In this document: positions 33,948-58,958 of the stretch, in pieces
How positions within the stretch are numbered: position 1 is the first letter of the stretch
Layout of the letters: every line of letters begins with the position of its first letter
IMG/VR virus record: IMGVR_UViG_3300025809_001850
Reading direction: 5' to 3' (one strand)
Source: a virus
Taxonomy: Duplodnaviria > Caudoviricetes
DNA length: 64,000 nucleotides
Program-made: the position numbers and the translations under genes
The notes under the pieces: model-generated
The model's database searches: none
What the model saw: only the letters and a program-made list of their open reading frames with translations
Told to the model about the DNA's origin: nothing

Positions 33948-34147
33948 TGATGTTTTCAGAACTTTCTAATCGTGCCAAATTAAACTATGTGTTCTTTTGG
34001 ATTAATTTAATTGTTGCTTTTATACTTGCATACGGTGGAAGTTGGTTTTGTATATTCAGTTTGGTTGTATCCTTTTTTTCATGGACGGCATACAAATTTC
34101 AAGATAAAATTGAAGACCAAAATAAAAACATTGACGAAGAAAAGTAA
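33947..34147 (+). CDS. Small membrane protein
   Basis: Two hydrophobic segments. Confidence 0.55.
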   Translation: MMFSELSNRAKLNYVFFWINLIVAFILAYGGSWFCIFSLVVSFFSWTAYKFQDKIEDQNKNIDEEK

Positions 34148-34165
34148 TTTATTTAATATAATTAA

Positions 34166-34378
34166 ATGAATAATCGTCAGATAAGCATTGATATAAAATA
34201 CGGAAACGAGATTTATAAGAAAAATTTTTCGGAATACGACAGTATTGCTTACATTTCGTTTTTGGAAGAATTCAAATTGTGGTATGAAATTAACGATGCA
34301 ACGGATGGGGAAACTCCGGTATTTGACGAAGAGTATATAGAAACGGACGATAAAAATGAGCAACAGAAAATATTATGA
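34166..34378 (+). CDS. Hypothetical acidic protein
   Basis: 70-aa ORF. Confidence 0.5.
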   Translation: MNNRQISIDIKYGNEIYKKNFSEYDSIAYISFLEEFKLWYEINDATDGETPVFDEEYIETDDKNEQQKIL

Positions 34379-34823
34379 TTACACAGAAATACATGGTTTT
34401 TGTGAAACTTTAGCAAATAGATTAAAACGAAGTAACTTTGATTCGGTAGTGGGTGTAAGTAGAGGTGGATTGATTCCTGCTACTATCATTGCCGAGTGCA
34501 TGAATGTGCGTGAATTAAGAACGGTAGGAGTACGTTCTTATGCGTTAAATGGAATTGGCAAGAGAAGCACCTCCGTTTTGTATCAAAGTTGTTCTCCGTA
34601 CTTAAAGGGTGATGTATTATTGATTGATGATATTGCAGATACAGGTGAAACTTTTAACTTTCTGCTTGATCATTTCAGCAAAAATAAAAACATCAATAGC
34701 ATCACCACTTGTAGTTTGTTTGTTAGACGAAGTTCAAGTTATGTTCCCGATTATTATCATACAGATATTGTAGGAAATGATTGGATTGTGTTTCCTTGGG
34801 AACCTGCTCCACCTTCTAATTAA
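34356..34823 (+). CDS. Type I purine phosphoribosyltransferase (Gpt/Hpt-like)
   Basis: VSRGGLIPA, VLLIDDIADTGET PRPP loop, WIVFPWE. Confidence 0.88.
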   Translation: MSNRKYYDYTEIHGFCETLANRLKRSNFDSVVGVSRGGLIPATIIAECMNVRELRTVGVRSYALNGIGKRSTSVLYQSCSPYLKGDVLLIDDIADTGETFNFLLDHFSKNKNINSITTCSLFVRRSSSYVPDYYHTDIVGNDWIVFPWEPAPPSN

Positions 34824-34888
34824 GATTTCCGCAAAAAAAAGTTATTGATTTCATCAACAACTTTTTTTCACTTCAATCAAGTTTTTGA

Positions 34889-34917
34889 TTGACTTTTTAT
34901 AATATTCTTGGTAGTAT
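34889..34917 (+). promoter_or_regulatory. Early promoter heading the DPW array
   Basis: TTGACT-TTTTATAATATTCTTGG-TAGTAT; TCAATCAA/TTGATTGA hairpin overlaps the -35. Confidence 0.8.
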
Positions 34918-34926
34918 GTAAAAAGA

Positions 34927-35247
34927 ATGAGAGATAAAAGAGATAGAGTTTTAATTGATGGTGGAATTTCTTGGCAAACAGATAAATTGCTTGAAAAATA
35001 TCCTATATCAAATGATACAGAGTGGAATGTTGATTTTACAAGCAATCGTTATCCGATGATCGTTTCAAGAATCAAAGAACCTAAACATGATCCTTGGGAT
35101 CGTCCTACTTTGCCTTGGAATTTCAATCAAGGTGATGGCAACAAATATAACTGGACTGCATCATCAATGCACGTCAAAGAATATACTCATTTTCGTTATA
35201 CATCAATCAAAGAAACTGCAATTAAGTTATGGCAAAAGAAACAATAG
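34927..35247 (+). CDS. DPW-family paralogue 1
   Basis: KYPISNDTEW / DPWDRPTLPW / FRYTSIKETAIKLW. Confidence 0.75.
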   Translation: MRDKRDRVLIDGGISWQTDKLLEKYPISNDTEWNVDFTSNRYPMIVSRIKEPKHDPWDRPTLPWNFNQGDGNKYNWTASSMHVKEYTHFRYTSIKETAIKLWQKKQ

Positions 35248-35546
35248 AAATTAATCCGAATGTTGCTTGGTATTCGTTGCAAGAATTATCATTTAGATTT
35301 CCGGTTGTTAATAAACGTTGGCAACGCAATGGAGATTTATTTGAATATTTTTATGATTTAGATGAACAACCTGAAAGTGATCCGTGGGGAAGAAAACTAA
35401 CTCCGTGGACTCGTCTCGGACAAACTGAAATTAATCATTGGGTAAATGCAACTACCAACGGAACATATTATCGGCTAACATCGGTTATGCGAAAAACGGT
35501 TGCATTGTGGATGTATCCTTCACCAAGTCATCCTTTGTATAAATGA
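35229..35546 (+). CDS. DPW-family paralogue 2
   Basis: RFPVVNKRW / DPWGRKLTPW / YRLTSVMRKTVALW. Confidence 0.75.
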   Translation: MAKETIEINPNVAWYSLQELSFRFPVVNKRWQRNGDLFEYFYDLDEQPESDPWGRKLTPWTRLGQTEINHWVNATTNGTYYRLTSVMRKTVALWMYPSPSHPLYK

Positions 35547-35908
35547 CGTTAATTAAAAACGGAATTTTGAATATTGATTTGCTTGCTCCCGGCAACGGAC
35601 TGCACATTCAATCCGAGTATGAACCGAAAAACAAACAATGGTTTCGTTTAGATTCTGAGTGGATTGCTCACGTGCGTCCTGAAACAAACAAAACATCAAG
35701 ATGTCCATTGTTGGAAGAAATTAAAACTGATCCGTGGGAACGGCCACTTATTCCGTGGACTTATGCGTATGCTCAACCTGGTGAAGATTGTTATGGAGCA
35801 CAAAATTGGAAACCAGAAACTAATGATCCTGATGTTCTCAAATTTTATCGGTATGTTACAATAAACGGAAAATATGTAAAACTGAAATTGATTTTCAAAA
35901 ATGATTGA
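35543..35908 (+). CDS. DPW-family paralogue 3
   Basis: EYEPKNKQW / DPWERPLIPW / YRYVTINGKYVKL. Confidence 0.75.
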   Translation: MTLIKNGILNIDLLAPGNGLHIQSEYEPKNKQWFRLDSEWIAHVRPETNKTSRCPLLEEIKTDPWERPLIPWTYAYAQPGEDCYGAQNWKPETNDPDVLKFYRYVTINGKYVKLKLIFKND

Positions 35909-36314
35909 ACCTATTACAATTCGTGGAAACCGAAGTATGACTAATTATGGTCAATTGATTTATGATCGTAATCAAGAGCATTTTTATACTTGGCACGAAG
36001 AACTTGATTATATTATCAAAGAGTATCCTATAACGAATCCTGTGTACGATTATTCTCCACATGATATACGATTTAACATAGCAACGAAAACAAATGTAAG
36101 TGTGTTAACGGAGCGGCAAAAAAAGTTTCTCGACTTTGATCCTTGGAATCGTCCACTTCGTAAATGGACTGCAACAGAAACCGCATATCCTGATACAAAC
36201 TTTGCAAGAAAATATGGTCGTGGTCCATACGAATGGTTAGATATTTATGACGGAGTTGATTTTCGTTGGACAACAATAGAAAACAAAGGAATTCGTTTTT
36301 ACAAATATCTATGA
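35901..36314 (+). CDS. DPW-family paralogue 4
   Basis: EYPITNPVY / DPWNRPLRKW / FRWTTIENKGIRFY. Confidence 0.75.
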   Translation: MIEPITIRGNRSMTNYGQLIYDRNQEHFYTWHEELDYIIKEYPITNPVYDYSPHDIRFNIATKTNVSVLTERQKKFLDFDPWNRPLRKWTATETAYPDTNFARKYGRGPYEWLDIYDGVDFRWTTIENKGIRFYKYL

Positions 36315-36748
36315 AAACAAACAACGATTTTATATTAATTAAGAAATGGCAATTTTATGATGTTTATCCAAAGATTGTGGGTGAGAATGCGTTTCCGATT
36401 ACCAACGAAGATGAATGGGAACGATGGGTTGAACCCATTAATTATCGTAGTCATTTGATTGCACTTGTACCGAATCCTAAATGTGATCCTTGGGGAAGGC
36501 AAATGCTTCCGTATAAAACTGATCACGAAAAAACTCCTTTAATGTGGGGAAAAGTTGGATGGCCACATCCTCCGTTGGATGATATGAATTCCGAAACTTG
36601 CATGACGGTTACTTCAGTAAATGGATTTGCAGTAAAATTGTATCGCAGAAAAGCAGAATGGAATGATCCTTGGCATCGTGCAGAATGCAAAAAACTTGGA
36701 ATAACTTTGAGTGAATATTATGATCGTAAAAAAAATAATAACATTTGA
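36311..36748 (+). CDS. DPW-family paralogue 5 (second DPW near the C-terminus)
   Basis: AFPITNEDEW / DPWGRQMLPY / TVTSVNGFAVKLY / NDPWHR. Confidence 0.75.
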   Translation: MKTNNDFILIKKWQFYDVYPKIVGENAFPITNEDEWERWVEPINYRSHLIALVPNPKCDPWGRQMLPYKTDHEKTPLMWGKVGWPHPPLDDMNSETCMTVTSVNGFAVKLYRRKAEWNDPWHRAECKKLGITLSEYYDRKKNNNI

Positions 36749-36773
36749 CATAATTTTTATAATATCGTAGAAT
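36745..36773 (+). promoter_or_regulatory. Internal sigma70-like promoter in the DPW array
   Basis: TTGACA-17-TAGAAT. Confidence 0.7.
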
Positions 36774-36785
36774 ATAATTAGTAGT

Positions 36786-37028
36786 ATGAGTAAAGAGTGG
36801 GATGTAAATAAATTGATAAACAAATATCCAATCAAGAATATTTGGGAATGGAAATTCACAGGAAATGTTATTACTTCAGTTGTTTGTTTGCATGATATAA
36901 AACAAGATCCTTGGAATCGTGATTTCACAAAAACAAAATCAAACTTTACCGTAGATGAAATGGGATTACTTGTGCATGGATTTACAAAAGTAGATGGAAA
37001 AAAAATAAGATTATGGAGTTGTGTATAA
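36786..37028 (+). CDS. DPW-family paralogue 6 (minimal, 80 aa)
   Basis: KYPIKNIWEW / DPWNR / FTKVDGKKIRLW. Confidence 0.75.
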   Translation: MSKEWDVNKLINKYPIKNIWEWKFTGNVITSVVCLHDIKQDPWNRDFTKTKSNFTVDEMGLLVHGFTKVDGKKIRLWSCV

Positions 37029-37319
37029 ATGAGAACATGGAATAAAGAAAAACTATTATTAAAGTATCCTGTGAGAAATTCATCGGATTATGATGTAAAT
37101 TATGTATTGGGATGTGGCAACGCATATTGGTATCCTGGATTACCAACTAAAATTGTAACTACTGATGGTGATGTTGCATATGATCCTTGGAACCGTGAGT
37201 GGCAAAAAAATACAAAGTGGGAAGCATACAAACCACATAAAGATACATACTTTCGGTGGGTGACCGTTGATAAACAAAAAATTGATGTTTATCTTGTTCA
37301 AAAAAATTATTCAATATAA
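37029..37319 (+). CDS. DPW-family paralogue 7
   Basis: KYPVRNSSDY / DPWNREW / FRWVTVDKQKIDVY. Confidence 0.75.
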   Translation: MRTWNKEKLLLKYPVRNSSDYDVNYVLGCGNAYWYPGLPTKIVTTDGDVAYDPWNREWQKNTKWEAYKPHKDTYFRWVTVDKQKIDVYLVQKNYSI

Positions 37320-37717
37320 TGCCTGTAAAAGAACTTAACATCAATAAAGATACTTGTGGTAAATGGAAATCACGATACATTCTTGATATTCTTGAAAAGT
37401 ATCCACAAATCAATTTCAAAGAATGGGAACTTCTTGAAATGCATCATCAAAATAAACCAAATGAAATTGCAGTTAATATGGTTTGTAAAATATGGTATCC
37501 TAAATTTGATCCGTGGAATAGAGAAATGTGCGATTGGACAATTGGAAATAACAAGTTTTCTGCAAAACACGGAAATCAAGTGAAGCAAGGTGATAACCAT
37601 TCAGTACAACTTCCAAGTATGAAAATCTGGAATACAACGGTTGCAGGACAACTTGTGCGATTGCATGGTCCTGTAAAAAGTTATTTTGTTATTCGTGGAA
37701 CATCTAAAATTTCATAA
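37319..37717 (+). CDS. DPW-family paralogue 8
   Basis: KYPQINFKEW / DPWNREMCDW / WNTTVAGQLVRLH. Confidence 0.75.
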   Translation: MPVKELNINKDTCGKWKSRYILDILEKYPQINFKEWELLEMHHQNKPNEIAVNMVCKIWYPKFDPWNREMCDWTIGNNKFSAKHGNQVKQGDNHSVQLPSMKIWNTTVAGQLVRLHGPVKSYFVIRGTSKIS

Positions 37718-37718
37718 C

Positions 37719-38087
37719 ATGAGTTCTTACGCAAATAGTATTCCTCTTTATATTCAACACAACGATATTCAATGGGATGCATTTGATTTGGTAAACAACA
37801 ATTATCCAATTGAAAATGATAATTGGGAAATACAAGAAGGTAATTTTTTGATGCTCAAAGAAAATTCTTCATTTGATCATAATTATGATCCGTGGAATCG
37901 TAAACTAAGAGCATGGAAGTTTCTTGATAAAGATGGTTTTATTGTAGAATGTGATGCGTGGACAATGAAACTTACAAGCAACATTGCAGCTTCACTTTAC
38001 GAAATTCGTTACACCACGGTTGCAGGAAAATCAATTCCATTATGGAGATATTGCGATGAATCAAAATATGTGTGCGTTCCATCCTGA
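37719..38087 (+). CDS. DPW-family paralogue 9
   Basis: NYPIENDNW / DPWNRKLRAW / IRYTTVAGKSIPLW. Confidence 0.75.
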   Translation: MSSYANSIPLYIQHNDIQWDAFDLVNNNYPIENDNWEIQEGNFLMLKENSSFDHNYDPWNRKLRAWKFLDKDGFIVECDAWTMKLTSNIAASLYEIRYTTVAGKSIPLWRYCDESKYVCVPS

Positions 38088-38439
38088 AGAAATAATTTTA
38101 GAGAATTTTTCAATGGGTGATCACTGGGGAACCGTTGAACTTATGAAACGATATCCAATTCAAAATCATGAACATTGGTCGTATGTATGTGATCCAATGG
38201 ATGTTGATTGTGATCCTGATGTAGCAAAAAAAATAACTTGTATTTCTGATACAGAATTTGATCCTTGGTTTCGTAAAATGATTCCGTGGAAATGGAGAGG
38301 TCATCAAGAAAGTTGTGAGTGGGATTTTCCTACACCTCATTTGTTTTTAAACGGAAAAAAGAAATATGCACTTGCAGAACGATACACAACAATTCAAGGA
38401 AAGCATACAAAATTGTATAAACGAATATACGATTATTAA
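38056..38439 (+). CDS. DPW-family paralogue 10
   Basis: RYPIQNHEHW / DPWFRKMIPW / ERYTTIQGKHTKLY. Confidence 0.75.
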   Translation: MNQNMCAFHPEEIILENFSMGDHWGTVELMKRYPIQNHEHWSYVCDPMDVDCDPDVAKKITCISDTEFDPWFRKMIPWKWRGHQESCEWDFPTPHLFLNGKKKYALAERYTTIQGKHTKLYKRIYDY

Positions 38440-38469
38440 TACAATTCTATGAATTTACACAAAACAATA

Positions 38470-38498
38470 TTGACTTAGAACCTCTTTTAAAATATATT
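38470..38498 (+). promoter_or_regulatory. Sigma70-like promoter
   Basis: TTGACT-17-TATATT. Confidence 0.6.
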
Positions 38499-38507
38499 AT
38501 TATTATT

Positions 38508-38726
38508 ATGAACAAACAAATACCAAAAAACATTCATTCTGCTTTAATTAAAAAATACGAAGCAGAAGCAGATATGGCAAAAGCAAATCTCTCGGTTTAC
38601 GACAACAATATGGTCGGAATAGGAGAACATCAAATTATCGCCGAGACCATTGAAGCAGAATACAAAAAACTTGATTCAGCAATTTCAATGCTTGAAACAC
38701 TAAAAAACAATCCGATTGGTGTATAA
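38508..38726 (+). CDS. Small helical phage protein interrupting the array
   Basis: LIKKYEAE..KANL..Y..N.VGIGEH; no DPW motif. Confidence 0.6.
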   Translation: MNKQIPKNIHSALIKKYEAEADMAKANLSVYDNNMVGIGEHQIIAETIEAEYKKLDSAISMLETLKNNPIGV

Positions 38727-38741
38727 GCACATAAACTGATT

Positions 38742-39092
38742 GTGGCAACGATGGATAAACCCAGTTTAAACATCAACTTTTATTCAGGTGAACAATGGAG
38801 TGACATCACACTTGTCAAAAAATTTCCACCAAGCAATTCTGTTTGGAATATAGGACTTCACTCTGATGTTGGATACGAACGATATTTCGTATTACCTGAT
38901 GATGCTTTGCATGAAGGACAAGACCCGTGGGAACGATGGATGCTTCCGTGGAGAAAAAACAAAACAGATACAACTACATACGCATGGACTGACACAGAAG
39001 CAGTTTTTGATTTACCTGAGAATCTTGAATATCAATTTCGGTGGACAACTGTAGCAGGTAAAAGAGTGAAGTTGTGGCGTAAAAAACCTTGA
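38742..39092 (+). CDS. DPW-family paralogue 11
   Basis: KFPPSNSVW / DPWERWMLPW / FRWTTVAGKRVKLW. Confidence 0.75.
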   Translation: MATMDKPSLNINFYSGEQWSDITLVKKFPPSNSVWNIGLHSDVGYERYFVLPDDALHEGQDPWERWMLPWRKNKTDTTTYAWTDTEAVFDLPENLEYQFRWTTVAGKRVKLWRKKP

Positions 39093-39117
39093 CTTTTTAT
39101 AAGATTTCAAGTAGTAT
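39089..39117 (+). promoter_or_regulatory. Early promoter cassette copy
   Basis: TTGACT-TTTTATAAGATTTCAAG-TAGTAT-ACTTGTAT. Confidence 0.8.
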
Positions 39118-39123
39118 ACTTGT

Positions 39124-39498
39124 ATGACGATGAAAGAAAAGAATGATGTTTTATTTGTCAATGAAGAATTACCATATGATGGTTGGGTTAAAAAACTTTT
39201 AAAAGAGTATCCTGTTAGAAATGCAGGTTGGAGTATTTTCAAACAAAACAAAGAAACTGCGTTCGTTTGGAACATTGATGATAATTTGATGACAGGTCGT
39301 GAAATTCCTTGTTATTCTAAACGTGATCCTTGGAATCGTCCAATTCGCAATTGGAAGTTTTTTGAAAACGATGAACCAAATGTTTGGTTACCTGTTGATG
39401 ATATGCAACGTCAAAGTTTTGAAGTTCCAACGAACGCAATTCAGTATGCGTGGACAAGCATCAATAATCGTTGCTTTTGTTTGTATTTGATTCAATGA
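39124..39498 (+). CDS. DPW-family paralogue 12
   Basis: EYPVRNAGW / DPWNRPIRNW / YAWTSINNRCFCLY. Confidence 0.75.
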   Translation: MTMKEKNDVLFVNEELPYDGWVKKLLKEYPVRNAGWSIFKQNKETAFVWNIDDNLMTGREIPCYSKRDPWNRPIRNWKFFENDEPNVWLPVDDMQRQSFEVPTNAIQYAWTSINNRCFCLYLIQ

Positions 39499-39857
39499 GT
39501 AATTTAACTGGAATCATGGTTGGAAGTGACTTTTATTCGTATAAAGAATTAAAGCAATTGATAATTGACTTTCCTATTCAAGTAAACGGATGGATTTGTG
39601 ATGTAAATAAAACTCATATGTATTTGTATTACGAAAAAGCATTTGGATTGAGCGATCCACTTTTAACTTTACGTGATCCGTGGAATCGTAGCATTCGTCC
39701 TTGGACTTATTATACAGATGACAATCCCACAATTTGGCAAAGTCGCAAAGCAGAACATCCAAGTCGTAATGCTATGTTTATGCCAACTGCTCCAAAAAAA
39801 GCAAGTCATTATGCGTACACAAGCATAAACAACAAATGGATATTTTTGTATGTTTGA
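39495..39857 (+). CDS. DPW-family paralogue 13
   Basis: DFPIQVNGW / DPWNRSIRPW / YAYTSINNKWIFLY. Confidence 0.75.
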   Translation: MSNLTGIMVGSDFYSYKELKQLIIDFPIQVNGWICDVNKTHMYLYYEKAFGLSDPLLTLRDPWNRSIRPWTYYTDDNPTIWQSRKAEHPSRNAMFMPTAPKKASHYAYTSINNKWIFLYV

Positions 39858-40152
39858 TTTAACAGAAATTGAAGAACGCATTGAACAATCAGAAAAAACG
39901 TTGATTGCGATTACTGATAAAATAAAAGATATGCGAAGTGACTTTGAAGAAATATATTCAGAACTTGAAAATAAAGAGGATGCATATTTTGAAGAACATC
40001 CGAAAGAACGAAAAGCATTAAATGAAAAAATTCGTAAAAGAATGTCGGTGTATGATTTATTAAAAGAAACTGCTGAGAATATTCGCACCAAGACATTTGA
40101 AGATATGCGATTAGTATTTGATGAACTTCAGAAAAACAAATATTACGAGTAA
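39850..40152 (+). CDS. Coiled-coil hypothetical protein
   Basis: Charged heptads, 100 aa. Confidence 0.55.
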   Translation: MFDLTEIEERIEQSEKTLIAITDKIKDMRSDFEEIYSELENKEDAYFEEHPKERKALNEKIRKRMSVYDLLKETAENIRTKTFEDMRLVFDELQKNKYYE

Positions 40153-40181
40153 GAAAATTATAAAAAAGAAGCATTTAGGTG

Positions 40182-40228
40182 TTGACTTATTATAATAGTT
40201 GTGGTAAGATTACTGTATTGAAAGTGAG
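40182..40228 (+). promoter_or_regulatory. Early promoter/leader cassette variant
   Basis: TTGACT-17-TAAGAT-TACTGTATTGAAAGTGAG. Confidence 0.8.
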
Positions 40229-40247
40229 AAACGAGAATTTAAAAAAT

Positions 40248-42887
40248 ATGAAAAATATAAGTGATATTACCGGGTATGATTACAATGATAAAGATGGATT
40301 TTTCCCCATATCGAATTCAACAGCTACACCAAACAACCGAACGATTCTTAAAAATGCAAGTGATCGTAAAATCAGTAATGCTATGAATCCTTCACTTAAG
40401 CATCGTTGGGATGCCAAGAAAAAAAGACAGGTTAGAGAAATTTCAGACAAAATTAGTGCAGAAGACATTAAAAAGCAAAAACTCAAGAACGAGTTTGAGT
40501 CTGCCAACTCTGCTATTTCACATAAGCAACTTGAAAAGAAACTCAAAAAGGAATCCAAGAAGAAATCCAAGCATCTTAGAAATATGATGCTGGAACCTTT
40601 CAAGGCAAAAGTTGCGGAAATCGCAAATACTATTGAAAGTCGTAGAATCGCAATGATGTATATAATAAAGGGTGCAACTAACCAAGGCAAAACTTACACA
40701 TCAGCAAAGTTCGCAGTTCCTTATTTAATGAAGAAGCAAGGTGTAGATGTTGTTTTTTATACTTACCCTCAAAATGAAATCTTCAATAAGAACGAGTGGA
40801 GAACCAAAGGTTACAAGATTATTGCTATTGGTGAAAATGATCAAAGAATTTCAAGTCAGATTGATTCACTTTTAGATGACATTGAAAATGATGTTGATCC
40901 TGTCAAATATGTAATCGCAATGACCAACAAAACTCTTGCGTGTGCTAAAAGTAGCACTAATCGTGAATCGCATGGAAAATACCTTGCCAAAAAACTTCAT
41001 TCACTTGGTAAGAAAATGGCATTCATTCTGGATGAATGTCACACATGGACGATCAGCCACATAGATGCTTACACTGATGTCACGGGTAACACGGGTGTAC
41101 CTCCTCAGTATGATGCTTCATTGTTTAAGTTTGTTGCTTGGTTGTCTAAGTACACTAAATTTCTGTTCGGACTTACCGCAACTCCTAACTTTGAGCAAAC
41201 TGGATTACGAGATACAATTAAAAAAGAAGCAAAACTTGATTACTCAGTAATCAACGAGTTTCCTGAACGTGAGGATTTGCTTCACGGACAAGCATGGTCA
41301 AAGAAGTTTGATTTCATGGACATGAAAAATGAAAATGACATTCAGACTAAAATTAGAAATATCACACGGGAGCATCTATCGGACAATATGACTTTGTCAG
41401 CTGCTGGACTTAAGGGAACAATGTTTATTCAGTCTAACACAGAGAAATCCACGAATAATAAAGCATTTGATGTGATGGACAGAATGAAGACTGTTGTCAA
41501 GGATTTACTCATTACTGACGATACCATTGATGATATTTATGATTATCTTAATCCTGAGACTGCTTCATTTGCGATTATATCTTCACATGATGACTGGCAA
41601 GGAGTATATTCCCTTGGGTCAGCATCCCGTCCGTACGACAGATTGGGTGGTTATCTCACCGAAACAGAAATCTACAAAAGGTTGGGTAATCCCAACGACC
41701 CACTTACTTTTTTAATTGCAGTTCAAAAAGGAAAAATGGGATTAAGTGTACACTCGTTCAGAAGTCTTATTTCCTTCAAAAATACCGAAAAGAAAGGCAA
41801 AGACGATGATAACAATTCTATCATAGTAACAACTATGCACGTTCAAACACTTGGACGTATGCCAAGATTGTATGTCCGACCGGACAACAAGAACTATGTA
41901 AAAGAATTCGGATATTCCACATTTGAGTATATAGCAAGAGCAAATGAATCAGAACTTAGTATATTGAAACTCAGTAATTCATATAATGTCCTCGTTGCCG
42001 ACTCGCAGACTTGGAGAGAATCTGTTGCCTGCTTCAACAAGCACTATGGTACTTCTCTTGAAATGGCAGAAAAGGAAATCGATAAAGTTCGTGCTGAATA
42101 CCCAAAGGCAAATCAAATTCCGGTCAATCATAACCTCCCAATAAACGGTGGTATTGTTTCAAACAAAAACGGATTTATTCTTGAAGCAAAGGTATGTCAG
42201 GCACTTATTTTTCAGGTGGAAGAACTCAATGAAAAACTTGGATTAACGGGTAACGATATATACAGAGTTCATTATTTCAAGTACAAGAAACTTCTTCCTT
42301 TGATTGATTCTAAGTATCACTATCTGATTGCGTCCTACCCAACCGATAAAACACCCGGTGGTCACAGAAAAATTCTTTCCAATAAAAATGAAGGTGGTGA
42401 GTATTCTATTGATTTAGATGCTTATATTGCTACACAGAATGATCCATTTGATATAGCAATCGGGTTCACAATTAAGAATGCAACCAAAGATCAAAACGGA
42501 GACGGACTATTAAATGGACTGACAGCAATGGAAGTTGATCTTGGGTTCCCTGGAATCGCAATAGTAAATCTTTATAGTGTAGATGAAAAAAAAACCCAAA
42601 AAAAGTCAAATACCTTTGCAAACAAGAAATCATCAAACACCTACGATAAATTTAAGTTTAATCAACACAAGTATAAGAACTCATTGGAAAGTGAAAACTT
42701 CAAGATCTTTGGTTTGAATGATCGGTCCGACTACGAGAAAATCAATTCAGATTTTCGTGACATGATCGGATATTACTATGATGAAGGAAGTGCTGAAATT
42801 GACCGACTTGTTACGAACCACCACACGGAACTCAAAGAAATACCCACCAAAATACCACGAAGAGGTGTGGATTTAATCTTCAGTTAG
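40248..42887 (+). CDS. SF2 (DExH, ResIII-like) helicase with putative C-terminal PD-(D/E)XK nuclease
   Basis: GATNQGKT, ILDECH, GLTATP, QKGKMG, QTLGRMPR; C-terminal GFILEAKV..IDLD..GFTIK. Confidence 0.72.
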   Translation: MKNISDITGYDYNDKDGFFPISNSTATPNNRTILKNASDRKISNAMNPSLKHRWDAKKKRQVREISDKISAEDIKKQKLKNEFESANSAISHKQLEKKLKKESKKKSKHLRNMMLEPFKAKVAEIANTIESRRIAMMYIIKGATNQGKTYTSAKFAVPYLMKKQGVDVVFYTYPQNEIFNKNEWRTKGYKIIAIGENDQRISSQIDSLLDDIENDVDPVKYVIAMTNKTLACAKSSTNRESHGKYLAKKLHSLGKKMAFILDECHTWTISHIDAYTDVTGNTGVPPQYDASLFKFVAWLSKYTKFLFGLTATPNFEQTGLRDTIKKEAKLDYSVINEFPEREDLLHGQAWSKKFDFMDMKNENDIQTKIRNITREHLSDNMTLSAAGLKGTMFIQSNTEKSTNNKAFDVMDRMKTVVKDLLITDDTIDDIYDYLNPETASFAIISSHDDWQGVYSLGSASRPYDRLGGYLTETEIYKRLGNPNDPLTFLIAVQKGKMGLSVHSFRSLISFKNTEKKGKDDDNNSIIVTTMHVQTLGRMPRLYVRPDNKNYVKEFGYSTFEYIARANESELSILKLSNSYNVLVADSQTWRESVACFNKHYGTSLEMAEKEIDKVRAEYPKANQIPVNHNLPINGGIVSNKNGFILEAKVCQALIFQVEELNEKLGLTGNDIYRVHYFKYKKLLPLIDSKYHYLIASYPTDKTPGGHRKILSNKNEGGEYSIDLDAYIATQNDPFDIAIGFTIKNATKDQNGDGLLNGLTAMEVDLGFPGIAIVNLYSVDEKKTQKKSNTFANKKSSNTYDKFKFNQHKYKNSLESENFKIFGLNDRSDYEKINSDFRDMIGYYYDEGSAEIDRLVTNHHTELKEIPTKIPRRGVDLIFS

Positions 42888-43777
42888 TGCTTGATATCAA
42901 TCAATCCATTTTCATTGTAAACAACAAACGGCATTGCATTGGTAGTATGAGCAACACCATAATTACCTTTAGAATCAATTCCAATGTACCCATAAAAATG
43001 TTTTCGTTGTTTTGCTTCTACAAAAGTTTTGTTGAATGCTTCTTTCAAAGACATTCCATCACGAATTCTCGTTTCTGTTTTTGAAGCAACTGCATCGTTG
43101 GTAATTTGTTCTCCGATACCTGTGACGGTAACAGCTGCAAACTTACTTGCATAATTTCCTGCGATTGTCCCAGAATCCGAAACTCTTCCTGGCATTTCAT
43201 TTCCGATACCACCGGTTGATGATCCACTTGCTAATTGTCCTTTGCTATCAATGACCACACAACCAACTGTATCATGTTCTGCCGTAGATGGGTAGTTTTG
43301 TTTGTGAAGATTACTTAACCACCTTTTAGATTTATCCTCGGTCAAATTAGAAGCAACGGGTAACTTCATTTCTCTTGCAAGTAATTCAGCACCTGGTGAA
43401 GCAAGAACCTTGGCATTTCTATTTTGAAGTTTTTCCGCAAGTTTACTTGGATTGCTGATGTAAGGAACAGATACAACTCCACTGAAGTTTTGTTTGTGTC
43501 CATTCATTATACTTGAAGTTAATCGTGGAACACCATCAGATTGTAATGCACTTCCGATACCTGCGTTGAATTGTTCATCATTTTCAAGCATTTCAAGACA
43601 TTGAACTACAACCTTAATTGCCGATTTGCCAGACTTTAAATTGGACATACATATATCCGCCATATTTTCTATTGATGCAATTGCTGATTTTAAAGCATTT
43701 CCTTTTGGATCAATCGGACTTGCTCCTCCGTGAATAATGATTAAAGGTAATTGTTCTTTTCCGTAAAATTGATTCAC
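42884..43777 (-). CDS. Isoaspartyl peptidase/L-asparaginase (Ntn hydrolase)
   Basis: IIIHGGA, LENDEQFNAGIGS, HDTVGCV (nucleophile Thr), STGG, GRVSDS, TGIGE. Confidence 0.92.
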   Translation of the reverse strand: MNQFYGKEQLPLIIIHGGASPIDPKGNALKSAIASIENMADICMSNLKSGKSAIKVVVQCLEMLENDEQFNAGIGSALQSDGVPRLTSSIMNGHKQNFSGVVSVPYISNPSKLAEKLQNRNAKVLASPGAELLAREMKLPVASNLTEDKSKRWLSNLHKQNYPSTAEHDTVGCVVIDSKGQLASGSSTGGIGNEMPGRVSDSGTIAGNYASKFAAVTVTGIGEQITNDAVASKTETRIRDGMSLKEAFNKTFVEAKQRKHFYGYIGIDSKGNYGVAHTTNAMPFVVYNENGLIDIKH

Positions 43778-43861: not shown

Positions 43862-46738
43862 ATGAGTGAAATTAAAGTAGGAGATTTTTATAATTCAGAT
43901 GGCGAGATCACGCAAGAGGATATTCAGTATTTTTTACACGGACTGAAGACTACACTCTTTTCGGAGGCAAACACTACAGAATTTGAAAAATCAAATATAA
44001 CACACAAAGAAAACTTTCGTGGTCCTGGATTTTATGAAGTTCTTAAACTTACATTAATTTCGGGTTCAGAAGTTCCAGATCCAACATTCTACACAGAATT
44101 AACAAGCAACAATACAATAACTTGGACTTGGACTAAAATCGATGGAGCAGTAAAATATTTAATTAAAATAAATGAAGAATCTAAAAATCCAGTAACTACA
44201 GAAGAATATACTATTAGTAATTTAACTGATGGTTCATACAAAATAAGTGTCGCAAGTGAAAATAATGCAGGTATAATTAGCAATTATGGTACACATAAGG
44301 TAGAAGTTGATTCTACTGCTCCTGATGTTCCTGCTCCATCACCGACAACAACAACAACTAATACAACTCCAAACTGGATATGGAAACGTGTAACTGATGC
44401 AGTTAACTATGAGGTTAACCTAAATGGAGAAAGCAAAGGTTCTCAAACCGGAAACAGTTATACTGCACCCACTTTGCAAAATGGAGAATACACAATTTCT
44501 GTGATTGCGATTGATGTGGTGGGAAACAGAAGTGTTGCAGGAACTCACACACTAACAATCAATGCAGATGGTGATTCTGAAAATGCTGAGTTTACAATGA
44601 ATACATCAAATGCAACTGATATGCAATATATGTTTAGTGGTTGTTCATCACTCGTTGAGTTAAATGCTACTAATTGGGATACATCAGCAGTTAAAGAAAT
44701 GGATTATATGTTCAATGCTTGTTCATCTTTGACTTTCGTTGATCTTGGAAAATGGGATGTTTCCAACACAACTGGAGGTGATGCAGACGTAAATGGCATG
44801 ACTTATATGTTTAATGGTTGTTTATCGTTAGACAACAATGGAGTAAACTTCTCCAAGTGGTGTGTAAGTCAATACACAGATGAACCAAGAAACTTCCGAA
44901 CAGAAGGTGTTAAGTTTGTAGAAAAACCAGATTGGGGATTTGCTTGTGAAAACAAAACCCCTGGTCCTATTTCTTCTCCTCCGTATGATTACATTGAATT
45001 AAAATACGATAGAGATATTGCACATTTAATCACGGCAGCGTACACAAGTAAGCAAAGAATTTACTTGCCATTCACCGACTATGGAACGGGAACAACGATT
45101 GAATGGGCAGATGGAAATGTAACATACAAAGAAGGAGTAATTGCATCTACTAATACAACAAACGATTCAGATACTACTATACTCACTTCGAAATACACTA
45201 CAGGTTCAACTATTACTATAAAAGTATATGGAGATGTCAAAAAATTCCTTGGAGCAACTGGTCCACATAATTCATATTGGCGATCCAATATGATTTGGCA
45301 TTCAAATACTGCGTTGAAAAGTGTAAAAATTGTGGGAATGTCAAGTATCATCCACTGCCAACGTGCGTTTGCTAATGCAATCAACTTAGAATCAGTTGAT
45401 TTAACTGAGTTTGATTCAAGCAATGTAATTAATATGGATTATATGTTTTACAAATGCAGTAGCATTGAGACACTCGATTTAAGTAACCAAGACGTAAGCA
45501 ACGTAACTAATTTCGGAAATTTCTTTGATGGTTGCTCTGCATTAACTGATCTGAATATAACAACATGGCAAACCACCGAAGCAACCGCAATGAATCATAT
45601 GTTCAGAAATTGTTCAGATTTACCTTATATCGCACCATCATCCGATAACAATCGTGCAACTGCTGAGTTTACATTGAATACATCAAAAGTTGCTGATATG
45701 AATCATATGTTTAGTGGTTGTTCATCACTTGTAAAACTGCATCCAACCAACTGGGATACATCAGCAGTTAAAGAAATGGATTATATGTTCAATGCTTGTT
45801 CATCTTTGACTTTCGTTGATCTTGGAAAATGGGATGTTTCCAACACAACTGGAGGTGATGCAGACGTAAATGGCATGACTTATATGTTTAATGGTTGTTT
45901 ATCGTTAGACAACAATGGAGTAAACTTCTCCAAGTGGTGTGTAAGTCAATACACAGATGAACCAAGAAACTTCCGAACAGAAGGTGTTAAGTTTGTAGAA
46001 AAACCAGATTGGGGATTTGCTTGTGAAAACAAAACCCCTGGTCCTATTTCTTCTCCTCCGTATGATTACATTGAATTAAAATACGATAGAGATATTGCAC
46101 ATTTAATCACGGCAGCGTACACAAGTAAGCAAAGAATTTACTTGCCATTCACCGACTATGGAACGGGAACAACGATTGAATGGGCAGATGGAAATGTAAC
46201 ATACAAAGAAGGAGTAATTGCATCTACTAATACAACAAACGATTCAGATACTACTATACTCACTTCGAAATACACTACAGGTTCAACTATTACTATAAAA
46301 GTATATGGAGATGTCAAAAAATTCCTTGGAGCAACTGGTCCACATAATTCATATTGGCGATCCAATATGATTTGGCATTCAAATACTGCGTTGAAAAGTG
46401 TAAAAATTGTGGGAATGTCAAGTATCATCCACTGCCAACGTGCGTTTGCTAATGCAATCAACTTAGAATCAGTTGATTTAACTGAGTTTGATTCAAGCAA
46501 TGTAACGAATATGAAATATATGTTCTATAATTGCAGTAAAATTGAAACAATGAATTTAACTGGTTTATTTGATGTAAGCAAAGTAACTGATTTCACTAGT
46601 ACATTTTACAATTGCTCTTCATTGACTGATTTGAATATATCAACATGGCAAACCAACGAAGCAATTACTTTTTATAGTATGTTCAGAAATTGTAGTTCAC
46701 TGGAACATATAGCACCAACCGCAGTAACATCTGAATAA
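43862..46738 (+). CDS. Surface/virion protein with Ig/FN3-like domains and BspA/DUF285 leucine-rich repeats
   Basis: Ig-like beta modules (W..V.GA..Y); repeats MxYMFxxCxSLxxLDLxxWDxS; 359-aa internal duplication. Confidence 0.8.
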   Translation: MSEIKVGDFYNSDGEITQEDIQYFLHGLKTTLFSEANTTEFEKSNITHKENFRGPGFYEVLKLTLISGSEVPDPTFYTELTSNNTITWTWTKIDGAVKYLIKINEESKNPVTTEEYTISNLTDGSYKISVASENNAGIISNYGTHKVEVDSTAPDVPAPSPTTTTTNTTPNWIWKRVTDAVNYEVNLNGESKGSQTGNSYTAPTLQNGEYTISVIAIDVVGNRSVAGTHTLTINADGDSENAEFTMNTSNATDMQYMFSGCSSLVELNATNWDTSAVKEMDYMFNACSSLTFVDLGKWDVSNTTGGDADVNGMTYMFNGCLSLDNNGVNFSKWCVSQYTDEPRNFRTEGVKFVEKPDWGFACENKTPGPISSPPYDYIELKYDRDIAHLITAAYTSKQRIYLPFTDYGTGTTIEWADGNVTYKEGVIASTNTTNDSDTTILTSKYTTGSTITIKVYGDVKKFLGATGPHNSYWRSNMIWHSNTALKSVKIVGMSSIIHCQRAFANAINLESVDLTEFDSSNVINMDYMFYKCSSIETLDLSNQDVSNVTNFGNFFDGCSALTDLNITTWQTTEATAMNHMFRNCSDLPYIAPSSDNNRATAEFTLNTSKVADMNHMFSGCSSLVKLHPTNWDTSAVKEMDYMFNACSSLTFVDLGKWDVSNTTGGDADVNGMTYMFNGCLSLDNNGVNFSKWCVSQYTDEPRNFRTEGVKFVEKPDWGFACENKTPGPISSPPYDYIELKYDRDIAHLITAAYTSKQRIYLPFTDYGTGTTIEWADGNVTYKEGVIASTNTTNDSDTTILTSKYTTGSTITIKVYGDVKKFLGATGPHNSYWRSNMIWHSNTALKSVKIVGMSSIIHCQRAFANAINLESVDLTEFDSSNVTNMKYMFYNCSKIETMNLTGLFDVSKVTDFTSTFYNCSSLTDLNISTWQTNEAITFYSMFRNCSSLEHIAPTAVTSE
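44675..46505 (+). repeat. Tandem 1077-bp duplication with apparently identical ~754-bp core (44675-45428 and 45752-46505)
   Basis: Identical antisense ORFs 45079-45423 and 46156-46500; ends match at offset 1077; flanking LRRs diverged. Confidence 0.9.
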
Positions 46739-53241: not shown

Positions 53242-53270
53242 TTGACAATATTCGTTTGGTGTCTTACTAT
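53242..53270 (+). promoter_or_regulatory. Sigma70-like promoter of clpP, near-leaderless
   Basis: TTGACA-17-TACTAT, 9 nt before ATG 53280. Confidence 0.65.
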
Positions 53271-53279
53271 TTAACACAT

Positions 53280-53897
53280 ATGGAAATTCAAAACAATGTA
53301 TACTTACCACTTCCGCACGTTTACGAACGTGAAGGCAGACAAGAACGTGCTTGGGACATTTATAGTCGTTTGCTTAGAGATAGAATTATTTTTATCGGAA
53401 CGCAAATTGATTCTTATGTCGCAAATTCCATCATTGCACAACTTTTGTTTTTGCAAATGGAAGACCCCAAGAAAGATGTTCATGTTTACATCAATTCTCC
53501 GGGTGGAAGTGTTTCCGATGGAATGGCAATTTACGATACCTTGAGATTCATGGAATGTGATGTTACTACTTACTGCATCGGAATGGCTGCAAGCATGGGA
53601 GCAGTATTACTTGCAAGTGGAACAAAAGGAAAACGATATGCACTTCCCAATAGTCGTGTTATGATTCACCAACCAAGTGGAGGAGCACAAGGACAAGCAA
53701 GTGACATCAGCATTTCAGCAAAAGAAATTATTCGTTGGAGAAAGATTCTCAATGAAGTTCTTGCAGAACAAAGTGGACAACCTGTGAAAAAAATTGAAAA
53801 AGATACAGATCGTGATTATTATATGACTGCACTTGAAGCAAAAGAGTATGGTCTTATTGACGAAGTAGTTGAACGCAAATCAGATTCAGACAAATGA
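53280..53897 (+). CDS. clpP: ATP-dependent Clp protease proteolytic subunit
   Basis: [28 protein letters not shown] (Ser), MIHQP (His), DTDRD (Asp). Confidence 0.97.
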
Positions 53898-54568
53898 GAA
53901 GTATTTTTATTTTAAAACTTTTAGTGTGCAACGCATTAATTGCCGAGCAATCATTATTTGACGGAAAAACCTTAAATGGATGGTCCGGCAATTCACAATA
54001 TTGGAGTGTAGAAAATCAATCAATCGTTGGAATAAATACAAAACAAAATCCAACTAAAGGAAACACATTTCTGATTTGGAAAAACGGAACATTAAAAAAC
54101 TTTGATTTAAGTCTTGAATGTAAAATAGAAACTGGAAATAGTGGAATTCAATACAGAAGTTTTTTGAAACCTGGGAAGCATGACGGATTCAGAGTTGGTG
54201 GATATCAAGCAGATTTTGAATCAGGAGATAAATTCTCTGGAATATGCTATGGAGAAGCATTTCGTGGAATATTATCATTGCGAGGAGATTCTACCACTTT
54301 AACCCGAACTTCTGATGGAAAATTAAGCAAACGAATCACTAAGATTGGAAATGCAAATGAACTTGGAAGTTATGTTAAAAAGAATCAATGGAATCATTAT
54401 CGCATCGTAGCAAACGGATTTCACTTTGAGCATTACATCAATAACAAAAAAATGTGCGAAGTAATAGATAATGATGTTAAACAACGAAGAACTGAAGGCC
54501 TGCTTGCATTGCAACTTCATGCAGGACCTCCAATGAAAGTTTATTATCGCAACATTATACTAAAATGA
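53894..54568 (+). CDS. DUF1080 / 3-keto-disaccharide hydrolase family, exported
   Basis: [51 protein letters not shown]. Confidence 0.88.
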
Positions 54569-57755: not shown

Positions 57756-58958
57756 ATGAGTGAGATTATAGCAAAGGTAGTTCAAAACAAAACACGTTTC
57801 AATGCAGTAGACGCAGATGGAAATAAAGTTGATGGAATTTCAGCAAGTTTGCGACGTAAAGCATTTGATGCCAACAAAGCACTTCAACGTGCAATCGGCA
57901 AAACAGGTCGTCCGTTTTGGAGATTGGTAAACATTGAGGAATTCGTTTCCATTGATACCAAGTCTGCTCCTACCACTTCACGTGATGAAGCAAGTATGGA
58001 AATTTCAGAGATTCCTGAAAAGCACAACGAAATTGTTGAGTTTCTTAAAAAGTGTTTTTCGTTGAAACCCAACAAATTGTTTATGAATGAAACCAAGTGG
58101 AAGTATTTGGTTCGTTCAGCAGTTCGTGGAAAGAACGTTATGATGACGGGCAACTCCGGTTGTGGTAAAACTTTGGCAAGTAAAACTCTTGCAGAAGTTC
58201 TTGATCGTCCTTTTTATTATTTCAATCTCGGAGCAACACAAGATCCTCGTTCTGCTTTGATTGGTAATACTCATTTCAAAAAAGAAACTGGAACCGTGTT
58301 TTCCGAAAGTTCTTTTATCAAAGCAATTAGAACTCCCAACTCTATTATTCTTCTTGATGAATTATCAAGAGCACATCCTGATGCATGGAACATTTTAATG
58401 ACTCCACTTGATCCTCTTCAACGTTATGTTCGGTTGGACGAATCTGAAGATTCTGAAGTTGTTCCTGTTGCAGATGGAGTTACTTTCGTTGCTACTGCAA
58501 ATGTAGGTAACGAGTATACTTCCACACGGGTAATGGACAGAGCATTGCTTGATCGTTTTGTAACCGTGGAAATGGATGAACTTGAATACGAAGAAGAAGT
58601 TCAACTTCTTAAATTACTTTATCCTGATGCCGATGTTAATATGCTCGGAACAATTGCAGAAATTACTACTCACACTCGTAAGGTTGTGAAAAGTGCTGAA
58701 GCAAAAATTACTGATGCTCTTTCAACTCGTAGTGCAGTTGAAATGGCAGGTCTTGCTTATGATGGTTTCAATTTACTTGAAATTGCAGAAGCATCAATTT
58801 ATCCTCACTTTTCAGATGATGGTGGTGCAGATTCGGAACGTACTTACATGAAGCAATTCGTTCAAAAGTATGTTCAAAACGAAGATACTCCCGAGGAATT
58901 ATTTTCTCTCAATCCCGATGAAAATCAAGAAGATGCAGTTCAAAGAACTCCATATTGA
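57756..58958 (+). CDS. MoxR/CbbQ-like AAA+ ATPase
   Basis: GNSGCGKT, LIGNTH, ILLDELSR, ATANVG, DRALLDRF, STR. Confidence 0.9.
   Translation: MSEIIAKVVQNKTRFNAVDADGNKVDGISASLRRKAFDANKALQRAIGKTGRPFWRLVNIEEFVSIDTKSAPTTSRDEASMEISEIPEKHNEIVEFLKKCFSLKPNKLFMNETKWKYLVRSAVRGKNVMMTGNSGCGKTLASKTLAEVLDRPFYYFNLGATQDPRSALIGNTHFKKETGTVFSESSFIKAIRTPNSIILLDELSRAHPDAWNILMTPLDPLQRYVRLDESEDSEVVPVADGVTFVATANVGNEYTSTRVMDRALLDRFVTVEMDELEYEEEVQLLKLLYPDADVNMLGTIAEITTHTRKVVKSAEAKITDALSTRSAVEMAGLAYDGFNLLEIAEASIYPHFSDDGGADSERTYMKQFVQKYVQNEDTPEELFSLNPDENQEDAVQRTPY

Follow-up and report, generated by a model that had tools for sequence, protein, structure and literature searches.

A tandem array of thirteen diverged small proteins that share a DPWxR motif in the genome of a marine phage

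What use would a phage have for thirteen strongly diverged versions of one small protein, encoded one after another? The question is raised by a 64,000-nucleotide (nt) stretch of Caudoviricetes DNA from the IMG/VR virus record IMGVR_UViG_3300025809_001850, referred to here as the window, in which a preliminary description made from the letters alone had picked out a run of small paralogous genes at positions 34927-39857. For simplicity, the genes were annotated as dpw01 to dpw13 and their products, which share the motif DPWxR, as the DPW family. Judging from sequence comparison, the 13 genes appear to be anciently diverged members of one family of small, soluble, Trp-rich proteins that is confined to a marine megaphage lineage. 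Our favored reading, to which we assign a probability of about 40%, is that the array encodes a standing panel of independent binding or modulating proteins, each of which would have one conserved partner of host or phage origin.

The array consists of 13 co-oriented open reading frames (ORFs) of 80-145 amino acids (aa), which are arranged head to tail on the + strand, and all of them were recovered at the coordinates that had been claimed (Table 1). The start codons chosen here agree with the gene lengths called in related phages. Adjacent genes overlap by 1-32 nt or are separated by 0-1 nt, and the exceptions are four gaps, each of which contains a promoter-like site.

An alignment of the 13 proteins reveals three blocks in a constant order: block A, W..L...YP(I/V)xN..W; block B, DPWxR...PW; and block C, (F/Y)R(W/Y)T(T/S)VxGK...L(W/Y). 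The D, P, W, and R of DPWxR are invariant in all of the window copies, and at least 90% of copies keep the block-A residues P and N, although the mean column identity of the family is only 17%. The N-terminal segments are the least alike and cannot be aligned, with the conservation being located in the three internal blocks. When a hidden Markov model (HMM) built from 12 copies was used to score the 13th, the copy left out reached 28-70 bits (E 7e-8 to 7e-21), whereas shuffled versions (200 per copy) scored at most 13.4 bits. Pairwise BLASTP was significant for 34 of the 78 pairs, with identities of ∼18-33%, and a six-frame HMM scan of the window revealed no 14th copy, since nothing beyond the 13 fell below E 0.4. 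At the DNA level, likeness between copies is confined to the 19-48 nt that encode DPWxR...PW (60-77% identity to the reference copy over stretches of 31-48 nt). The Asp, Pro, and Arg codons in this stretch differ from copy to copy (GAT/GAC, CCT/CCG, and five different Arg codons), which argues that conservation is at the level of the protein. Thus, the three-block motif and the protein-level conservation proposed in the preliminary description were both borne out.

The proteins also have properties in common. Their Trp content is 3.6-6.9%, as compared to 1.46% in the long ORFs of the window. Hydropathy over 19 residues peaks at 0.79, indicating that no hydrophobic segment is present, and secreted or membrane proteins were therefore ruled out. 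The isoelectric points (pI) span 4.7-9.4, a spread that rules out a uniform nucleic-acid binder. One copy departs from the common plan. The C-terminal tail of dpw05 carries a second W-x-DPW-x-R (residues ∼117-123, coded at 36664-36682), which lies outside of the domain and is retained in all four members of the orthogroup that were examined (dpw05, its counterparts in the related contigs L011 and L018, and protein P0012). This tail motif could be left over from a partial copy, or it could be functional as a free-standing motif, and the sequence hints that DPWxR may have a role beyond domain stability, such as that of a shared contact site.

We could not place the family within any named one, which is in line with the preliminary description. 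Pfam gave no match at E ≤ 1 for the 10 copies searched and single-member noise only when 58 members were scanned. The best PHROG match was E 5e-4 for one copy, and no PHROG family was matched by more than 3 of 68 members. PADLOC searches, per copy and per alignment, returned noise only, and the best hit of a sequence-profile search of the PDB had an E value of 0.3. DPW and DPF are also known as adaptor-binding motifs of eukaryotes; this likeness was set aside as a three-letter coincidence.

To find further members, the profile of the 13 copies was searched against 1.84 billion protein-cluster representatives (E ≤ 1e-3). The search matched 61 proteins of 49-181 aa, 58 of them with DPWxR, and a second search enlarged the family to 97 proteins in total. 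DPWxR is present in 93 of the 97, and the four exceptions look truncated or frameshifted. Among the representatives found in the first search, every window copy is matched by an orthologue with 51-88% identity. All of the matching contigs that were fetched are from marine metagenomes, and adjacent DPW genes were found wherever a neighboring gene was readable. The full array is located in the same place in L011 (43.5 kb), L012, L017, and L018 and in the long-read contigs L008, L009, and L010 (95-319 kb). The gene order in these relatives is a phosphoribosyltransferase, ∼13 DPW genes, a 100-aa gene, a 72-aa gene, and an asparaginase on the minus strand. GenBank phages matched neither the DNA of 34000-41000 nor the dpw01 protein, and IMG/VR scans with the family alignment, dpw11, and the helicase gave no matches.

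The exact DNA of the array is present, at least in part, in 20 marine metagenome runs of 17 studies. At least half of it is present in 11 runs, nine of which may be source samples. Contigs from marine RNA libraries cover parts of the array in 17 runs of 12 studies, which is suggestive of transcription. It should be noted that the contrast in RNA coverage over 30-46 kb was unusable as an expression control, as coverage is poor where the window carries an insertion specific to its strain.

The comparison with relatives bears directly on how the copies have evolved. A tree of 39 DPW copies from the window and the compared contigs pairs dpw01 to dpw11 and dpw13 each with its own orthologue (96-100% support), while dpw12 has L004_c01 as its sole close relative and an unresolved placement. 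The closest pair of paralogues is dpw12 and dpw13. The stems of the tree measure 0.6-2.6 changes per site and the tips mostly <0.4, from which it follows that the duplications long predate the split of these phages. In keeping with this, related contigs have 1:1 orthologues in the same array order. The ratio of nonsynonymous to synonymous substitution rates (dN/dS) between orthologues, compared across the window, L011, and L018, is 0.07-0.47 for every DPW gene and 0.07-0.26 for three flanking genes. When pooled over 12 orthologue pairs, dN/dS is 0.18 for the motif blocks and 0.27 for the two inter-block segments, both well below 1. In the dpw11 orthogroup (13 sequences), the second loop has a mean entropy of 0.75, as compared to 1.27 for block A. 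These values show purifying selection on every copy, loops included. Non-coding or chance ORFs were ruled out by dN/dS well below 1 together with the high leave-one-out scores. Because the loops are conserved among orthologues, the inter-block segments are better described as specific to each paralogue yet conserved among orthologues than as hypervariable in an arms race. The preliminary description had called the loops hypervariable and placed them under diversifying selection; the comparison of orthologues reversed that reading, and it follows that paralogues within a single genome can differ strongly even if diversifying selection is not at work on them now. In addition, no long near-identical repeat of the template kind was found in 34800-40200 (a reverse transcriptase was not searched for), and the absence of such a repeat at the array ruled out a target of a diversity-generating retroelement.

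Copy-number variation between relatives, which had also been anticipated, does occur but is modest: a relative may have one copy more or one fewer, or a single slot may be swapped. L011, L014, and L018 carry a copy, cX, between dpw10 and dpw11, with only 38% identity between the L011 and L018 versions. The window is without cX and has the 72-aa gene in this slot, while in the same three contigs the 72-aa gene follows the 100-aa gene. From the gene order, the 72-aa gene is a small translocation that coincides with the loss of cX. All three contigs also lack dpw12, and L014 is without dpw08 as well. Extra copies are found between dpw03 and dpw04 in L008, L009, and L010 and before dpw01 in L006. 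Synonymous divergence between the window (34356-39857) and L011 (5129-10360) jumps from gene to gene, from 0.12 to >1.3. It is 0.12 for dpw10, 0.25-0.5 for most copies, and at least 0.8 or saturated for dpw01, dpw07, dpw11, and the phosphoribosyltransferase. This mosaic suggests recombination between strains.

Two copies were modeled with AlphaFold. The model of dpw11 (58-sequence alignment) has a predicted local distance difference test score (pLDDT) of 83.4 and a predicted template modeling (TM) score of 0.77. The model of dpw04 (68-sequence alignment) has a pLDDT of 74.2, with the 27 N-terminal residues <50 and most later blocks >80. The two have in common an N-terminal helix formed by block A and a C-terminal beta-hairpin formed by block C, and confidence peaks around DPWxR in both. 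The inter-block segments are ordered and copy-specific, being mostly short bridges in dpw11 and containing extra helices in both positions in dpw04. The models therefore agree with the shared scaffold that had been proposed, with the copy-specific elements located in between. Foldseek searches with the dpw11 model gave E ≥ 0.6 for the PDB, ≥ 0.65 for AFDB clusters, and ≥ 0.87 for BFVD. VIA-align against 48,161 PDB chains gave a best Z of 2.3 and the ESM Atlas a best TM of 0.39. For dpw04, the corresponding values were Z 2.3 (VIA-align), E ≥ 2 (Foldseek), and TM ≤ 0.35 (ESM Atlas), and feature searches of the ESM Atlas gave no matches. According to the notes on VIA-align, Z 7-8 is usual even for models without a clear match. 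The value of 2.3 obtained here lies below this level and points to either an unusual topology or a partly wrong model. On the strength of the models, the DPW domain is likely to be a new fold. Weak BFVD rows named as HNH or homing endonucleases were rejected (E ≥ 0.87, TM ∼0.2, no conserved His or Cys).

Taken together, these results are the ground for the favored reading. Old paralogues that are each under purifying selection point to thirteen distinct and stable roles, as opposed to redundancy or dosage. Since members are singly missing in relatives and the array has four promoter-like sites, independent proteins are favored over one obligate complex. The small size, the solubility, the fixed aromatic core, and the ordered variable inserts suit binding proteins. 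The roles put forward in the preliminary description, namely those of a binder, an inhibitor, an anti-defense factor, or a ligand sponge, would be plausible. In such a panel, two ordered copy-specific inserts would be displayed on a core common to all copies, in which the invariant DPWxR turn is joined by the helix of block A and the beta-hairpin of block C. DPWxR may serve either to hold the fold together as its keystone or to provide a contact site shared by the copies, and the panel would be made from sigma-70-type promoters. Several points weigh against a panel of independent binders. Since the RNA libraries supplied nothing but contigs, these may stem from carried-over DNA. Pairwise dN/dS leaves room for a few positively selected sites. 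The models are poor in regular secondary structure, and parts of a model that has no match may be wrong. Lastly, the invariant D, W, and R and the near-invariant N would also fit a small-molecule pocket, and the tight translational coupling and conserved composition would also fit the subunits of one assembly.

The pocket is the alternative that survives best, although we regard it as somewhat unlikely. The DPW proteins would then be a ligand-binding family, either sponge or lectin-like, in which a pocket built from DPWxR and conserved Asn and Trp residues accommodates a nucleotide, a signaling nucleotide, or a sugar, and the variable inserts tune the ligand choice of each copy. Trp, Arg, Asp, and Asn are residues typical of ligand contacts, and the family keeps four invariant residues despite its low column identity, a near-invariant Asn, and a fourfold enrichment in Trp. 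The phage also has a large glycan-building region, and the constant upstream neighbor of the array is a phosphoribosyltransferase of the purine-salvage type. This neighbor is set apart from the array by a hairpin (34834-34868) and the array's own promoter, which weakens the functional link that the constant adjacency had prompted us to consider. Furthermore, the fold searches with the two models revealed no likeness to the known folds of sponges, lectins, or carbohydrate-binding proteins; packing is predicted with the greatest confidence around DPWxR in both models, as would suit a structural keystone; and thirteen conserved small-ligand specificities are hard to motivate.

It is quite unlikely that the paralogues co-assemble as a hetero-oligomer into one phage-specific structure or machine. 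The overlapping start and stop codons would suit balanced synthesis, the order and 1:1 orthology of the genes are kept under purifying selection, and co-assembly is one of the two readings of paralogue arrays given by Zhang, Iyer, and Aravind (2011, PMC3113570). However, relatives lose or replace single members and retain the rest, the array is split by its four promoter-like sites, and the charge of the copies covers a wide range.

Distinctly unlikely, in our view, is the version put forward in the preliminary description, an arms-race repertoire of effectors with two loops still under diversifying selection. The loops do differ freely among paralogues and have a dN/dS somewhat above that of the blocks, the slot between dpw10 and dpw11 turns over, with the diverged cX in place of what the window has, and dpw12 is strain-specific. 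These observations are outweighed by the dN/dS of all orthologue pairs, which is like that of the flanking genes, by the second loop being one of the better conserved segments within the dpw11 orthogroup, and by paralogue stems that are far longer than the orthologue tips.

A more speculative version of the binding panel, and something of a long shot, is that the DPW domain is a new-fold modular recognition scaffold that carries 13 fixed specificities on two grafted inserts and in which DPWxR, present also as a free-standing copy in the dpw05 tail, docks all of them on a common machine, for example the phage's own ClpP/AAA+. The genes for ClpP and an AAA+ protein are located 14-19 kb downstream of the array. 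If true, the array would be a panel of substrate adaptors by which chosen host proteins are handed over for destruction or remodeling. Finally, small enzymes with a catalytic D and R are very improbable: Asp and Arg are indeed invariant, but the copies include one as short as 80 aa, conserved His, Cys, Ser, or Glu residues are lacking, neither model resembled any enzyme fold in the searches, and a single enzyme would not usually be expected to have thirteen conserved paralogues.

The setting of the array is summarized in Table 1. The window has ∼34% GC, its genes are almost all on one strand, and it also encodes a collagen/S74 fiber protein, glycosyltransferases, and metK. A 29-nt motif, TTGACTTTTTATAATAAnTTTGGTAGTAT, occurs at 17 places in the window, where chance would give 0, and only on the + strand. 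Its sites span 24378-62843 (e.g., 28062, 34889, 39089, 51900, 54984, and 61334), and no copy is found within the first 24 kb, which is the glycan and fiber region. The motif probably marks one temporal class of transcription units, and the absence of this sigma-70-type promoter class from the fiber/glycan region suggests a non-structural expression class for the array. Of the four promoters listed in the preliminary description, the sites at 34889 and 39089 belong to this motif, while those at 36745 and 38470 are looser matches; the "early" timing that was attached to them can only be inferred. The hairpin upstream of dpw01 may be a bidirectional terminator. No toxin or nuclease is located next to the array in the window or its relatives, the neighbors being the phosphoribosyltransferase, the 100-aa and 72-aa genes, and the asparaginase.

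A few observations were made further downstream. L011, L012, L013, and L014 lack both the ResIII-type helicase-like gene and the DUF285/LRR_5 gene, and in these contigs the 100-aa and 72-aa genes lead directly into the asparaginase and a 235-aa gene. Both genes look like insertions that are specific to the strain of the window. A copy of the promoter motif (40182-40210) falls inside the GTG start listed for the 902-aa ORF (from 40179), the true start of which is probably further downstream. In the relatives, giant genes (>2700 aa) with WD40_RLD/RCC1-like repeats are found a few kb downstream of the array (L011 16010-20360, L012 10629-14979, and L014 8992-11842).

Table 1. The DPW array of the window and the features that surround it
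Feature	Position	Strand	Remarks
Type I phosphoribosyltransferase	34356..34823	+	155 aa; conserved upstream neighbor, also in L006, L009, L011, L017, L018
AT-rich inverted repeat	34834-34868		16-nt arms, 94% complementary, 3-nt loop, flanking A and T runs
Promoter-like site before dpw01-dpw05	34889..34917	+	TTGACT, 17 nt, TAGTAT; member of 17-copy motif
dpw01	34927..35247	+	106 aa, DPWDR; L011 orthologue at 70% identity, dN/dS 0.16
dpw02	35229..35546	+	105 aa, DPWGR; 19-nt overlap with dpw01
dpw03	35543..35908	+	121 aa, DPWER; ATGA overlap with dpw02
dpw04	35901..36314	+	137 aa, DPWNR; second AlphaFold model
dpw05	36311..36748	+	145 aa, DPWGR; second W-x-DPW-x-R in tail
Promoter-like site before dpw06-dpw10	36745..36773	+	TTGACA, 17 nt, TAGAAT; 11/12, looser sigma-70-like
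dpw06	36786..37028	+	80 aa, DPWNR; smallest copy
dpw07	37029..37319	+	96 aa, DPWNR
dpw08	37319..37717	+	132 aa, DPWNR; missing from L014
dpw09	37719..38087	+	122 aa, DPWNR; acidic (pI 4.7)
dpw10	38056..38439	+	127 aa, DPWFR; 32-nt overlap with dpw09
Promoter-like site before 72-aa gene and dpw11	38470..38498	+	10/12, looser sigma-70-like
72-aa gene	38508..38726	+	Unrelated to DPW family; breaks array between dpw10 and dpw11
dpw11	38742..39092	+	116 aa (GTG 38742) or 113 aa (ATG 38751), DPWER; first AlphaFold model
Promoter-like site before dpw12	39089..39117	+	Member of 17-copy motif
dpw12	39124..39498	+	124 aa, DPWNR; sister copy to dpw13; lacks orthologues in L011, L014, L018
dpw13	39495..39857	+	120 aa, DPWNR
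100-aa gene	39850..40152	+	Conserved downstream neighbor; 8-nt overlap with dpw13; weak sub-threshold coiled-coil-type Pfam match only
ResIII-type helicase-like gene	40179-42887
Asparaginase_2 protein	42884-43777	-
DUF285/LRR_5 gene	43862-46738
ClpP	53256-53897		Full-length, E 8e-84
3-keto-disaccharide hydrolase family protein	53894-54568
AAA_5 ATPase	57756-58958

None of the libraries searched contained the DPW family or its predicted fold. The kind, a viral tandem multigene family, is already known. Tandem families of diverged small proteins are a way in which large DNA viruses keep many host-directed tools. To the best of our knowledge, few tandem multigene families are known in phages, and we found no description of a tandem family of diverged small proteins for marine megaphages. 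Because its conserved members are under purifying selection, each should have a definable partner or ligand. The family is thus a tractable entry to the effects of megaphages on their hosts and possibly a new small recognition scaffold.

Several known systems invite comparison with the array. The internal proteins of T4-type phages are polymorphic small proteins encoded in one locus and linked to counter-defense, and they share only an N-terminal capsid-targeting peptide. In the DPW proteins, by contrast, the N-termini cannot be aligned, conservation lies in the internal blocks, and there is no shared N-terminal targeting sequence. The MGF360/505 genes of African swine fever virus are lineage-restricted tandem paralogue families with roles in interferon evasion. 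They resemble the DPW genes as tandem paralogues in a very large viral genome, with orthologues kept across strains and some gain and loss, but differ in host domain, encode much larger proteins, and have no sequence relation to the DPW family.

The host-takeover module of phage SPO1 is likewise a block of many small phage genes, and it reportedly has strong early promoters, just as the DPW block is interspersed with sigma-70-type promoter-like sites. Its genes are not known to be paralogues of one family, unlike the DPW genes. The SPO1 module has been described as comprising 26 genes, with at least one product being an adaptor-like regulator of a host Clp protease (bioRxiv 10.1101/569657).

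The arrays of the SUKH superfamily, which include bacterial immunity-gene arrays and the US22 arrays of betaherpesviruses, have been read as one scaffold with many protein partners, with the virus arrays acting on host proteins; paralogue arrays were interpreted there as either one complex or alternative versions (PMC3113570). The DPW array shares with them the tandem arrangement of strongly diverged paralogues of one small domain (alpha+beta in SUKH), with 13 copies at 18-33% identity. It differs in that Pfam searches matched the DPW proteins to neither SMI1_KNR4 nor any Imm family, that no structural match was obtained, that no toxin or nuclease gene adjoins the array, and that its composition is largely fixed among relatives, whereas the members of SUKH arrays differ widely in number and type. 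The nearest analogues of the DPW array, namely the SUKH arrays, the SPO1 module, and the multigene families of large DNA viruses, are functional and not homologous.

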